From: Escherichia coli
GTDB taxonomy: Bacteria; Pseudomonadota; Gammaproteobacteria; Enterobacterales; Enterobacteriaceae
Direction: 5' to 3' (one strand)
Length of the DNA: 64,000 bases
Assembly: GCF_022846255.1 (NCBI RefSeq)
Contig: NZ_AP025682.1
Positions 1 through 4,443 of the stretch are shown piece by piece. The position numbers and the translations under genes were made by a program. The notes beneath the pieces are model-generated. The model had not been told where the DNA came from. It did no database searches and saw only the letters and a list, made by a program, of their open reading frames with translations. Position 1 is the first letter of the stretch, and the number at the start of each line of letters is the position of its first letter.

Positions 1-554
1 TGTATCTTCTCTGCAATATCTTTCTGGCAACCCATCGCATCAGTTGTGATGATTTTTCCTTTAATATCCAGCATGTTAAGAAGTTCAGGGATAGCTGTAA
101 TTTCATTGGATTTCTCATCCGTCCTGATCTGTCCGATGACCAGACTGTGCATTGTTGAGAACGCACTAATGACATGAATCGCTCCCCTGCGGCGACTCTT
201 GTCATAAGAATGTCGGAGCGTTTTTCCATCAATTGCAATAACGTCTTTATCATCTGAAGAATGGCAGTCACGCATCCAGTTAATAAAGCACTCGTGAAAT
301 TTTGCAGGACTGATACAGGATACAACTCTGGCAATGGTATCGTGAACAGGAATACCATTTTCAAAATCACCATATTGCTTCAAAAAATCGAGATGTGTTT
401 CCCCAAAACCCTCTATATCTTCCCAGCCTTCTGCACCAGAAATAACGGCACAAATAGTCAACAGTAGAATATCCGATAATTTATGTTCCACTTTCCAGGC
501 TTGTCTGTAATCGGGGATAATAGAAATATGTTCCATCAATTTTTTAAGTACCAT
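1..554 (-). CDS. ISAs1-family (H-repeat-associated) transposase, N-terminal part; CDS runs off the window start
   Basis: Reverse-strand translation from the ATG at 554-552 gives [32 protein letters not shown]..., matching H-rpt/ISAs1 transposases; AAGGAG RBS just upstream. Confidence 0.85.
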
Positions 555-661
555 TTTGTTCTCCTTAATTATGTAAGGAGTATTTGATCATGTATAAGCA
601 ATAAAAAACAGCTTCAGGTAATAAGGAATATCTCAATTTTTAAACATAAAATGCGAATTAT

Positions 662-871
662 TTAGTACAAAAAAGCAGCGTTACGTGATCTTTCCCTGGT
701 TATCGCTGTTCTTTCCCCTTGACCAGGCAAATATTTTTCATTATGGATCCATACCTTGCTATAATCAATTGTATTCTCAAAAATCGATCTGGCCAATGTT
801 AATTCACCAGATGTCATTCTCCTTAATGACATATCCTTTCCCCTGGAAATAATATCTTTCAGATAAAACAC
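662..871 (-). CDS. small hypothetical protein (69 aa), possibly YncH-like
   Basis: ORF track; sits between the H-rpt transposase and ansP where yncH lies in K-12; no recognisable domain. Confidence 0.4.
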   Translation of the reverse strand: MFYLKDIISRGKDMSLRRMTSGELTLARSIFENTIDYSKVWIHNEKYLPGQGERTAITRERSRNAAFLY

Positions 872-1769
872 AAACGCTCTTTGATGTTCAACATTCCCAC
901 TTTATACAGTATTGATGGCATCATCTTCATAGAAAATGAAATCAAAGCAAGTTATCAACGTTTCCCATTACGATTTCTTAACATTAATTCTCAGCATTTT
1001 TATTAATCTATTTTCAATATCAATAACCGATGCAAATGATTACGCAGTTAACATAATCCTTATCAATTGATTAATATCTGTAAACGCTACCGCCCCACCC
1101 TGATATCTTAATCTGCACATAGCAATCTTAACGTTATGCCCCATACATTAGTAATGTAAATTAAGAATTCGGAATATATCAAATTCACTTCATAAATTAA
1201 TATCGGGAATGATATACACATTAATTATATTGAAGTAATGGTTTAAGAGTTGTAATGACCATGGAACAGGACTAATTCCAGAAACTCCTGTTGGGCAATA
1301 GCGCGTTTATCATCCTACATGCCTCTTACATTTTTTAGCCTTTTCTTTAACGTCAGCAATTGGCTCATTTAATCAGCAATGGTATTGGTATTTGGCGTAT
1401 TACCCCTGAAACCCGTCATGTGCTAGCACCTCACTATTCAATGAGCCAACCACGCCAGTGTCCACTGCAACCACTGGCGTTCAGAGCGACGAACGAGTGG
1501 CGCAAGAGTAGGACTGCCGTCGGGCATCATCAAACCAATAGTTGTTGTTTCCGTCAAAATTTCATCAGGTTGCTATTTGGTTGCCGGCCGCCTTTATCCC
1601 CACATATTTATAGCGGGATTATTTTGCATCGTTACACGATAAAAGGTAGGATTCTGCGCCGACAGTTATACCCATAAAGAATAATGGTGAATCTTGTCAT
1701 CGCCAGGATGAATAAACATTGTTCATGGCAACTTATATGACTTTTTCATTAAAGCAATCAGGGAGAGCA

Positions 1770-3269
1770 ATGAGTAAACACGACACCGACACTTCAGATC
1801 AACACGCCGCGAAACGCCGCTGGCTTAATGCCCACGAAGAGGGGTATCACAAAGCGATGGGCAATCGCCAGGTACAGATGATCGCCATTGGCGGCGCGAT
1901 TGGCACCGGCTTGTTTTTAGGTGCAGGAGCCCGACTGCAAATGGCGGGGCCAGCACTGGCACTGGTCTATTTAATCTGCGGCCTGTTTTCATTTTTTATT
2001 CTGCGTGCATTGGGTGAGCTGGTGCTACACCGCCCTTCCAGTGGCAGTTTTGTCTCTTATGCCCGTGAGTTTTTAGGAGAGAAAGCCGCTTACGTTGCAG
2101 GCTGGATGTACTTCATCAACTGGGCGATGACGGGGATTGTCGATATTACCGCCGTCGCTCTGTATATGCATTACTGGGGTGCGTTTGGCGGCGTGCCGCA
2201 GTGGGTCTTTGCGCTCGCTGCGCTGACCATCGTTGGTACCATGAATATGATTGGTGTGAAATGGTTTGCGGAGATGGAGTTCTGGTTTGCGCTTATTAAA
2301 GTGCTCGCCATCGTGACCTTTTTGGTCGTGGGTACAGTGTTCCTCGGTAGCGGTCAGCCGCTGGATGGCAACGCCACTGGCTTTCATTTAATTACCGATA
2401 ACGGCGGCTTTTTCCCCCACGGTTTGCTGCCTGCGCTGGTGTTGATTCAGGGCGTAGTGTTTGCTTTTGCCTCCATTGAAATGGTGGGTACAGCGGCCGG
2501 AGAATGTAAAGATCCGCAGACCATGGTGCCTAAAGCGATTAACAGTGTGATTTGGCGTATTGGTCTGTTTTACGTCGGCTCCGTGGTGTTGCTGGTTATG
2601 TTATTGCCGTGGAGCGCGTATCAGGCGGGGCAAAGTCCGTTCGTGACGTTTTTCTCTAAACTGGGTGTGCCATATATCGGCAGCATTATGAACATTGTGG
2701 TGCTGACCGCTGCCCTCTCCAGCCTGAATTCAGGTCTGTACTGCACCGGGCGTATTCTGCGCTCGATGGCGATGGGCGGTTCCGCACCGAGTTTTATGGC
2801 GAAAATGAGTCGTCAGCATGTGCCGTATGCCGGGATTCTGGCGACACTGGTTGTGTATGTCGTCGGCGTATTCCTCAACTATCTGGTGCCGTCGCGCGTA
2901 TTTGAGATTGTGTTGAACTTCGCGTCGCTGGGAATCATCGCTTCATGGGCGTTTATCATCGTGTGCCAGATGCGCCTGCGTAAAGCGATTAAAGAAGGCA
3001 AAGCAGCGGATGTCAGTTTTAAACTGCCTGGCGCGCCCTTCACTTCCTGGCTGACATTACTGTTTTTACTGAGTGTCCTTGTGCTGATGGCGTTCGATTA
3101 CCCGAACGGGACTTATACTATCGCGGCGCTGCCGTTTATCGGTATTCTGCTGGTTATAGGCTGGTTTGGTGTGCGCAAACGCGTTGCTGAAATTCACAGC
3201 ACTGCGCCAGTCGTCGAGGAAGATGAAGAACAACAGGAAATTGTGTTTAAGCCTGAAACGGCGAGTTAA
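1770..3269 (+). CDS. ansP: L-asparagine permease (amino acid permease family), 499 aa
   Basis: ORF track 1719..3269; start placed at MSKHDTDTSDQ (ATG 1770) preceded by GGGAGAG RBS; characteristic APC-family transmembrane sequence. Confidence 0.93.
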   Translation: MSKHDTDTSDQHAAKRRWLNAHEEGYHKAMGNRQVQMIAIGGAIGTGLFLGAGARLQMAGPALALVYLICGLFSFFILRALGELVLHRPSSGSFVSYAREFLGEKAAYVAGWMYFINWAMTGIVDITAVALYMHYWGAFGGVPQWVFALAALTIVGTMNMIGVKWFAEMEFWFALIKVLAIVTFLVVGTVFLGSGQPLDGNATGFHLITDNGGFFPHGLLPALVLIQGVVFAFASIEMVGTAAGECKDPQTMVPKAINSVIWRIGLFYVGSVVLLVMLLPWSAYQAGQSPFVTFFSKLGVPYIGSIMNIVVLTAALSSLNSGLYCTGRILRSMAMGGSAPSFMAKMSRQHVPYAGILATLVVYVVGVFLNYLVPSRVFEIVLNFASLGIIASWAFIIVCQMRLRKAIKEGKAADVSFKLPGAPFTSWLTLLFLLSVLVLMAFDYPNGTYTIAALPFIGILLVIGWFGVRKRVAEIHSTAPVVEEDEEQQEIVFKPETAS

Positions 3270-3381: not shown

Positions 3382-4443
3382 TTACAGCGCAATACGAATC
3401 ACATCGTCCGGCTGGGTAGCTTCCTGCTGTTTAGTGGATTTTTGTTTCACACTGACATACAGCGTTTTGCCATCGGCAGACAGCGCCAGGCTGTTCGGAT
3501 GAGTCGGCGTATCGAACGTTTTCACCACTTTATAGCTTTTCGCGTCAATCACACTGACTTTACCTGCCTGACGATGCGTCACGTAGGCTTCATTACGCGC
3601 GGGGTTAAACAGCACAGCCAGTGATTCCGGTGCCGCAACCTTCGCCAGAATATTGCCATTACGGGTATCGACCACTAACACTTCTGCCGCTTTAGAATCG
3701 GTGATAAATGCACGCTGCCTGGCGGTATCAAGGCTAATGTTGATAAAGAAGTGCTCTTTGCCGTCATCCAGCAGCTTTTTACGGCTGAGGATTTTATTGT
3801 CGGCGGTGTCGATGGTAATCAATTCGCCGTCAGCGTTAGTGGTGTAAAGACGTTTGCCTTTGCTATCCAGCGCCAAACCGGTACTCATTTTACCGGTGTT
3901 CTGGATGGCGGTTTTCAGTTTGATATTCTCGCCATCAACGACCCAAATCACGCTCTCTTTACCAATACCACTGATGTAAACGGTGTTCGTGGCATCATCA
4001 GTTACCAGCTCACGCGGCTGCAACGGACGCACTTCTTCGGTACGTTTACGCTCATCAAGCACCAGACGTCCTTTCACTTCGCCCGTTTTGGCATCTATCG
4101 CCGTGACCGCACTATTTACGGTGTTACCAAACCACAACGTCTGAGTCGTGTTATTGATGGTGGCACCAAACGACTTGAGATCGTTATGGATCGCCTGCGT
4201 CACTTCCAGAGTAACCGGATCAAGACGATAAACCACACCGCCTTTATCCAGTTTGCGGCTTTGCGAAGTGGCGAGCCACAGCGCGTTTTCTTGCTGGCTA
4301 TAAGCCATTTCGTAGGCACCTTTACCTACCGCTTTACGCAGCATTTCTTCTGCGGCCTGCGTACTGAATGATGAAGCAACGAGCAATGAACCTAACAGTA
4401 ATGAACCACGCAGGCGCGATGAAAACAGATGACGTAAATGCAT
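3382..4443 (-). CDS. yncE: YncE beta-propeller protein (353 aa)
   Basis: ORF track; sequence matches YncE; N-terminal signal-like segment. Confidence 0.9.
   Translation of the reverse strand: MHLRHLFSSRLRGSLLLGSLLVASSFSTQAAEEMLRKAVGKGAYEMAYSQQENALWLATSQSRKLDKGGVVYRLDPVTLEVTQAIHNDLKSFGATINNTTQTLWFGNTVNSAVTAIDAKTGEVKGRLVLDERKRTEEVRPLQPRELVTDDATNTVYISGIGKESVIWVVDGENIKLKTAIQNTGKMSTGLALDSKGKRLYTTNADGELITIDTADNKILSRKKLLDDGKEHFFINISLDTARQRAFITDSKAAEVLVVDTRNGNILAKVAAPESLAVLFNPARNEAYVTHRQAGKVSVIDAKSYKVVKTFDTPTHPNSLALSADGKTLYVSVKQKSTKQQEATQPDDVIRIAL

Follow-up and report, generated by a model that had tools for sequence, protein, structure and literature searches.

The 0.9-kb gap upstream of ansP in an Escherichia coli chromosome, very probably a mosaic of an ansP control region, a yncG-family pseudogene and the front end of a vgrG/Rhs island

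The intergenic gap upstream of ansP

The question raised by this locus is what occupies nearly a kilobase in front of ansP, the L-asparagine permease gene of E. coli, where no gene is evident. The gap extends from 872 to 1769 (898 bp) of the window, the term used here for the whole 64,000-nucleotide stretch that was analysed. It is bounded on one side by a 69-aa minus-strand ORF, the nearest upstream one, which ends at 871 (or at 832 with the start that PGAP annotates in relatives), and on the other by the ATG of ansP at 1770-1772. A preliminary description made from the sequence alone placed these limits correctly and named yncG and rhsE as the K-12 occupants of the site, as the K-12 record confirms. 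It took the stretch for an ORF-free deletion scar, possibly with a long ansP leader.

The gap is very likely a real non-coding mosaic of three parts: the control region of ansP, a yncG-family pseudogene and the front end of a vgrG/Rhs T6SS island. Composition, homologies, population distribution, junctions and identity to promoters mapped in K-12 form the basis of this reading. All parts belong to kinds that are already known, and the region is in that sense unremarkable; the only possibly new item is a conserved core found upstream of vgrG/Rhs islands. For annotation, no new gene, RNA or leader is needed, and three labels suffice: yncG-family pseudogene, front end of a truncated vgrG/Rhs island, and short ansP promoter region.

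Base composition changes along the gap. The distal part is very AT-rich, as had been described (GC 32.5% for 872-1330, vs 49.3% for the whole window); GC is 46.9% for 1331-1620 and 37.6% for 1621-1769, and ansP itself stands at 52.7%. Mechanical ORF calling returns frames of 41, 44, 34, 37 and 39 aa, together with a TTG-start ORF of 105 aa at 1360-1677 (plus strand). The 105-aa frame was rejected as a gene: stop codons break it in E. whittamii, and in Escherichia sp. E1V33 it is frameshifted. The view that the gap holds no plausible ORF stands insofar as no ORF is conserved, but it overlooked a recognisable pseudogene, in which the 39-aa ORF (1438-1557, minus strand) is a hypothetical protein for PGAP and bears the product name "glutathione S-transferase" in nr.

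A covariance-model scan of 500-1900 against Rfam 15 (E <= 10) returned two matches, to snoR27 (E 0.35) and to Atu_C9 (E 5.6). Neither comes near its gathering score, which leaves no credible structured RNA in that interval. Literature searches on RhsE/vgrE and on yncG with ansP yielded nothing about this intergenic region, and in the plasmid collection only mislabelled E. coli chromosomal pieces matched.

The upstream end of a vgrG/Rhs island

Homology assigns 833-1330 to the region in front of an ansP-linked vgrG/Rhs T6SS island. Islands of this kind have long been known in E. coli as Rhs elements or vgrG-Rhs T6SS auxiliary islands (PMC2935791, PMC7216683). Where the present island is intact, it begins with genes of 176 and 118 aa, followed in order by vgrG, dcrB and a large RHS gene, and it is present beside the same stretch in AR_0077, APEC O2-211, E2348/69, CUWW06 and Escherichia sp. 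E1V33. DcrB and RHS genes are found where a locus extends far enough; two loci (L014, L016) show the set through DcrB. The homology of the upstream non-coding DNA is high (98.7-99.2% over 898 bp), whereas contiguity with vgrG, dcrB and rhs is missing in the window. Intact relatives carry the island genes; here only about 44 codons of the first one are left.

These first ~44 codons occupy 699-832 (minus strand), where the gene is truncated by H-rpt, and were recognised by alignment with AR_0077 (L004, 3431-3961). In its intact form the gene specifies a protein of 176 aa that has an HEMMH motif and is named "type IV secretion protein Rhs" by PGAP. The 118-aa lipoprotein-like ORF next to it matches NF045617 ("T6SS immunity periplasmic lipoprotein") only weakly, with a score under the curated cut-off. 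The 176-aa gene appears effector-like and the 118-aa lipoprotein immunity-like. The cusS-linked vgrG-dcrB-rhs island differs at this end, starting directly with vgrG, whereas the ansP-linked type starts with the 176-aa HExxH gene and the lipoprotein gene.

Between the first island gene and the conserved core lies an AT-rich spacer (833-1080, minus strand), presumed to be a 5' leader, with no conserved ORF and no Rfam match. Among Escherichia its conservation is no more than moderate; about 976-1125 is missing from E2348/69, and about 699-1102 from the AVS0747 type. The sci1 T6SS cluster of EAEC has a Fur-regulated promoter. In 872-1340 of the window, the best candidate for a Fur box agrees with the 19-bp consensus at 13/19 positions, a chance-level score that was reached or exceeded in 139 of 500 shuffles, and a Fur box was rejected here.

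The ISAs1 (H-rpt) element and the deletion junction

At the left edge of the window a transposase gene of the ISAs1 family (H-rpt, ISEc1-like) runs off the end, so that its 5' part alone is present (3-554, minus strand). Its product matches the Pfam domains DDE_Tnp_1_assoc (E 1.1e-33) and DDE_Tnp_1 (E 1.4e-11) and is homologous to the ydcC/ISEc1/ISEc5 transposases annotated in C11, AVS0747 and K-12. The non-coding H-rpt/ISAs1 end follows at 555-698 (minus strand), with the terminus ...GATCTTTCCCTG, and then the deletion junction. Both the transposase domains and the shared element end place the element in the ISAs1 family. ISAs1-family elements also stand beyond rhsE' and ydcD in K-12, a further likeness between the RhsE locus and the window with its H-rpt.

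Homology to the intact island ends at about 698/699, at the H-rpt terminus. This terminus, ...CTTTCCCTG, is common to five loci (the window, C11, AVS0747, E. whittamii and K-12), and the same end meets four different neighbouring sequences in the first four of these and a fifth in K-12. Measured on the window, the junction lies 4 bp further in for C11, at ~1103 for AVS0747 and at ~967 for E. whittamii. The AVS0747-type junction occurs in 552 of 5,426 complete genomes and the C11-type in four; the exact junction of the window is absent from this set. One fixed end with varied neighbours is the classical signature of one-ended IS-adjacent deletion. From the junction series we infer that the H-rpt junctions arose in this way, a pattern that independent insertions with later recombination between H-rpt copies would also give.

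A true deletion scar is thus present at about 698/699, to the left of 872-1769. The scar proposed in the preliminary description is borne out in part: the gap is relic DNA, a real scar is nearby and the pseudogene has internal deletions of its own, but the scar lies outside the interval, and what it removed was a set of vgrG/Rhs island genes, not a K-12-type yncG/rhsE segment. In this strain ISAs1 (H-rpt) abuts codon ~44 of the first island gene, and all island genes beyond it are gone. The conserved core described below is thereby orphaned and, if still active, could only read into the truncated gene and then into the transposase gene on the same strand. On the deletion account, the island end would have lost sequence to ISAs1 (H-rpt) elements repeatedly.

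The conserved non-coding core

The part of the island front end that is best retained is a non-coding core of ~145-160 bp at 1081-1240 (minus strand). Its most conserved segment, a sub-core at about 1083-1133 with the pattern CGTTAAGAT..GTGCAGAT..TATCAGGGTGGGGCGGTAGCGT, occurs once in the window, where none is expected by chance. By eye in the alignments, 1126-1240 is the best-conserved piece of the whole gap and nearly invariant across Escherichia, including E. whittamii. Most E. coli genomes have copies of the ~160-bp core, at 74-77% identity, in two further places. One is the cusS-linked vgrG-dcrB-rhs island, where the copy precedes vgrG by 340-480 bp; the other is the RhsE relic, where in K-12 it stands between yncH and the truncated rhsE (rhsE') and is 76.6% identical. 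The orientation relative to the downstream genes is always the same. Superficieibacter electus has the sub-core too, ahead of small unannotated ORFs and with no recognisable T6SS gene in the 11.5 kb covered there. A scan of the genome collection for exact sub-core matches reached three species only, too few for covariation work.

The core contains a sigma-70-like site, TTGATA-18-TACATT, at 1182..1153 (minus strand), a weak candidate promoter with 9 of 12 consensus matches; its candidate -10 element is poorly conserved in the paralogous copies (TCCACT). RNA structure is not evident in the core (consensus energy -5.3 kcal/mol, no covarying pairs, single-sequence z -1.15). A sigma-54 promoter considered by eye in the sub-core (GGGTGG-N5-TAGCG) is a poor match and was discarded.

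The most economical reading, which has about an even chance of being right, is that the core holds the promoter of the island and the beginning of the leader. Alternatively, it is simply the slowest-decaying part of a duplicated island end. A more ambitious reading, which is rather doubtful, makes the core a dedicated cis-regulatory cassette of Escherichia T6SS cargo islands, the sub-core being a putative regulator site or a recombination handle for cassette exchange. Such a cassette, if real, would be common to ansP-linked and cusS-linked islands and the K-12 RhsE relic, and in part to Superficieibacter; in the window and in ~10% of E. coli genomes it would have been captured beside an ISAs1 transposase gene, which it could drive.

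It has also to be considered whether the AT-rich part encodes an unannotated small protein or a small RNA, and this is very unlikely. The candidate is a 34-aa ORF at 1040-1144 (minus strand), in which the central peptide, CR..YQGGAVA(F/Y), coincides in part with the conserved sub-core. Its frame stays open in the window and in K-12, NCTC9088, S1-IND, E1V33 and L017, and both differences in NCTC9088 (GGG>GGA, GCG>GCA) are synonymous in it. The frame is nevertheless interrupted by a stop in L014, and Superficieibacter has stops and no start codon. The internal ATG is missing in E. whittamii, L017 has a non-synonymous G>R change, and the C-termini are wholly different in length and sequence. A 37-aa ORF at 1108-1221 (minus strand) is not retained in the paralogous copies. 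Both micro-ORFs over the core were accordingly rejected. Against a small RNA stand the lack of an RNA structure signal and of any Rfam match.

A yncG-family pseudogene

The middle of the gap, 1333-1572 (minus strand), is by its alignment a dead yncG-family glutathione S-transferase gene and the positional counterpart of K-12 yncG (b1454, putative glutathione S-transferase). With K-12 YncG as the tblastn query, two colinear blocks in one reading frame are recovered from the window: 1572..1444 corresponds to residues 59-101 (53% identity, E 9e-10), and 1410..1333, in the same frame, to residues 175-200 (42% identity, E 0.017). These matches overturn the preliminary description on this point, which implied that no yncG homolog was there. 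The remnant has several in-frame stop codons, with stops lying between the blocks. An in-frame internal deletion has taken roughly 50-70 codons, and the N-terminal ~58 codons are absent together with the promoter. Other parts of the K-12 segment have left no such trace: tblastn detected no remnants of yncH, rhsE or ydcD in the window.

Remnant variants from other strains and species strengthen the match (tblastn E down to 1.7e-11). The copies of CUWW06 and E1V33 keep extra colinear pieces, FADY (residues 109-113) and GPxHEWFQ (164-176). The internal deletion is common to all remnant copies examined, and the stop in the segment IAD* is present in every copy that retains this segment, E. whittamii excepted. 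Further, lineage-specific deletions are visible in the alignment.

A HMMER search of 1.84 billion representatives gave 15 hits, and the nine inspected were all YncG-family proteins or further remnant copies. Among these nine of the 15, no intact close relative of the remnant was found, the YncG-type proteins reaching at most ~69% identity. The conceptual translation had no Pfam or NCBIfam match at E <= 1, whereas the K-12 YncG control matched GST_N_2, GST_N_3 and GST_N. Similarity and synteny both agree with membership of the YncG family; an intact frame with GST_N and GST_C is lacking. Because of the stops, the deletion, the missing N-terminus and the absent domain match, the remnant was filed as a pseudogene and not as a member gene.

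In its position, its strand and its divergent arrangement relative to ansP, the remnant resembles K-12 yncG; it differs in no longer being a gene, and it is an old allele in its own right that did not arise by recent decay of the K-12 gene. Its presence in other Escherichia, including E. whittamii, indicates that the inactivation is old. The yncG-family gene would have been inactivated before the present Escherichia lineages diverged and later eroded by deletions. The remnant may go back to an ancestral allele, or it may have arrived together with the island.

The hairpin that had been noted at about 1453-1479 is real, and its 8-bp stem extends to 9 bp with an 11-nt loop (1452-1480, without strand assignment). 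It lies inside the pseudogene, over codons equivalent to YncG residues ~90-99. Its free energy of -15.8 kcal/mol does not exceed chance (z -1.86): of 200 shuffled sequences, 9 gave folds of equal or greater stability. Neither strand has a T-run after the stem and the terminator scan does not list the hairpin, which was rejected as a Rho-independent terminator: the stem is present, the T-run is not. Among the eight lineages compared, no pair shows compensatory changes; four pairs vary by unpairing only, and five of the eight lack pairing at the second G-C position. The hairpin is lost in Escherichia sp. E1V33 and weakened in E. whittamii, and the equivalent site of K-12 yncG has none (z = -0.04). 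It was rejected as a regulatory stem on its z-score, the lack of covariation, its absence from K-12 yncG and its degradation in other species, and is regarded as a chance product of decaying sequence.

Haplotypes at the ansP boundary

The population data separate two arrangements. The full 898 bp is present at 98.7-99.2% identity in 229 of 5,426 complete E. coli genomes, AR_0077 among them. The remnant alone is more widespread, with 786 of the 5,426 genomes (14.5%) at 81-99.7% identity, and K-12-type yncG is found in 4,607 (85%). Since the remnant and intact yncG together account for at most 5,393 of the 5,426 genomes, they almost never co-occur and behave as alternative alleles of one locus. 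Other Escherichia genomes carry the remnant as well, those of E. whittamii and Escherichia sp. E1V33 among them. Two of the remnant copies (P0003, P0004) adjoin ansP. Next to P0004, the same island genes follow in two of the three loci shown, the third (L015) having other ORFs; in the P0003 locus (L017), other ORFs take the place of the island genes.

Homology between K-12 and the window is limited to 1622-2000 (ansP and ~150 bp upstream) and to 1-715 (H-rpt). Taken with the sequence divergence described below, this distribution identifies the stretch as a separate, old haplotype and not a deletion derivative of the K-12 arrangement. The ansP/yncG boundary carries two old, almost mutually exclusive haplotypes: 85% of genomes have intact yncG, and 14.5% have a dead yncG beside a T6SS island. 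The two part abruptly, ~150 bp upstream of ansP.

That a K-12-type yncG-yncH-rhsE segment was simply deleted in recent time, as the preliminary description had supposed, is most improbable. The occupation of this site by yncG, yncH and rhsE' in K-12 agrees with it, as does the H-rpt at the left edge, which recalls the distal end of K-12 RhsE. A recent event is contradicted by the divergence of the remnant from yncG, 53-61% identity in protein and ~68% in DNA (over 102 bp, the only alignable stretch), beside a flanking ansP that is 96-100% identical. The same remnant with the same internal deletion is moreover found in E. whittamii, E1V33 and further Escherichia, and the island core is only 76.6% identical to the K-12 copy.

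The ansP control region

The ansP-proximal part of the gap, 1621-1769 (plus strand), is common to both haplotypes, homology to K-12 starting at ~1620. Within it, P2 has a -35 element TTGTCA (1694-1699), a -10 element CATTGTT (1717-1723) and a start at ~1730, and P1 a -10 element CAACTT (1729-1734) and a start at ~1739; a ribosome-binding site GGAGAG lies at ~1762-1767 (plus strand).

These assignments draw on K-12, where a ChIP-seq peak of sigmaS-RNA polymerase covers 1524000-1524199 and contains two validated ansP starts, 1524035 (P1) and 1524044 (P2), listed in Table 1 of Peano et al. 2015 (PMC4447067). Table S3 of the same study gives promoter strings (-20 to +1) that recur exactly at window positions 1721-1740 for P1 and 1709-1728 for P2 (PMC4447067). 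The published promoter strings are thus unchanged in the window, and the ends of the matched strings lie within 1-2 nt of the published start coordinates. Coordinates of ansP were taken from NC_000913.3 and converted with an offset of 1,976 bp between U00096.2 and U00096.3, which we take to be correct and with which the string positions agree. Projected onto the window, the K-12 starts, which were mapped under specific conditions, fall at ~1739 (P1) and ~1730 (P2) and give leaders of 31 and 40 nt; under other conditions a further, more distal ansP start may be used.

One difference from K-12 concerns the -35 region of P2, where five bases differ (AATCTTGTCA in the window, ATAACTATCA in K-12); the consensus is matched at 5/6 positions in the window (TTGTCA) vs 3/6 in K-12 (CTATCA). 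The final 78 bp before the ansP ATG show no differences among the six E. coli strains aligned. In the alignment, 1617-1690 is nearly constant even in the most divergent Escherichia loci and 1700-1760 is variable; 1617-1690 probably holds regulator binding sites. As one part of the three-part explanation, and with the high confidence that attaches to that explanation as a whole, 1621-1769 would serve ansP through P1 and P2, promoters of sigmaS/sigma70 type, with short leaders. A sigma-54 promoter considered by eye 5' of ansP (TGGCAA-N5-ATGAC) is a poor match, is not kept in other Escherichia genomes and was rejected.

The weakest of the rival explanations, that the stretch or its proximal 300-400 nt forms a long structured ansP leader (a riboswitch, an attenuator or an sRNA-target region) using the hairpin at 1452-1480, can point to a 9-bp G+C-rich hairpin, to good conservation of 1534-1690 inside the remnant haplotype and to an 18-codon upstream ORF (1684-1740) in E. 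coli, but is close to refuted: the mapped K-12 starts lie 31 and 40 nt from the ATG, both inside 50 nt and in sequence identical here, 85% of E. coli carry wholly different DNA above ~1620 (the yncG promoter and gene), the hairpin is within chance and without covariation, and Rfam gives no match. The possible long leader of the preliminary description falls with it. The upstream ORF was itself rejected, as hand translation of the alignment gives it no stop in CUWW06, where it runs in frame into ansP.

The ansP gene itself (1770-3269, plus strand, 499 codons) was taken from the ORF list and is annotated as ansP in all related records. It is followed by yncE, pqqU and mcbR, in the order seen in K-12.

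Junctions of the H-rpt element

The ansP-proximal island region has been fused, at no fewer than four different points that vary by lineage, to one and the same end of H-rpt, an ISAs1-family insertion sequence. This end (...CTTTCCCTG; window 555-700) is constant among the junction loci compared, L001, L003, L012 and L002. Of 5,426 complete E. coli genomes, 552 carry the junction type at about window 1103; none in this set has the exact junction of the window.

First genes of the island

In the intact island of AR_0077 (L004), the first gene (3431-3961, minus strand; window counterpart 699-832, minus strand) encodes a 176-aa product carrying an HEMMH (HExxH) motif. PGAP names it 'type IV secretion protein Rhs', and searches of Pfam and NCBIfam assigned the protein to no family. 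It is followed by a 118-aa lipoprotein-like ORF (L004 3078-3434, minus strand), whose match to NF045617, 'T6SS immunity periplasmic lipoprotein', is weak and scores under the curated cut-off (E 2.3e-7). Lying upstream of vgrG, these two genes look like an uncharacterised effector-immunity pair.

Sub-core occurrences and variants

The sub-core, the most conserved part of the non-coding core upstream of vgrG/Rhs islands, also occurs in Superficieibacter electus (L011 3860-3945, minus strand), with ynbABCD-like genes upstream of the motif and four small ORFs without a family match downstream; no T6SS gene was recognisable in the 11.5 kb examined. E2348/69 (L010) is a natural deletion variant of the element: it lacks about 150 bp equivalent to window ~976-1125, including the G-rich half of the sub-core, and despite this loss retains the first two island genes, together with a vgrG-like gene in truncated form and part of an rhs gene.

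Erosion of the yncG remnant

Additional internal deletions in the yncG remnant (window 1333-1572, minus strand) differ among Escherichia lineages, as seen when L014 and L015 are aligned with the window. In both loci 147 bp equivalent to window 1255-1401 are missing; in the lineage of the window, a deletion of about 25 bp lies in the remnant at 1443/1444. These lineage-specific deletions are those of an old pseudogene eroding stepwise.

The ansP promoter region

Five substitutions cluster at window 1690-1700 (AATCTTGTCA in the window versus ATAACTATCA in K-12), within the -35 region of the ansP promoter P2. The window haplotype carries a near-consensus -35 hexamer, TTGTCA, where K-12 has CTATCA; judging from these substitutions, ansP expression could differ between the haplotypes. 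An ATGAA-N9-TTCAT inverted repeat (ATGAATAAACATTGTTCAT; window 1709-1726) overlaps the P2 -10 element, is unchanged throughout E. coli and may serve as a repressor site. Table 1 of PMC4447067 labels ansP an 'arginine transporter'; the gene actually encodes the L-asparagine permease.
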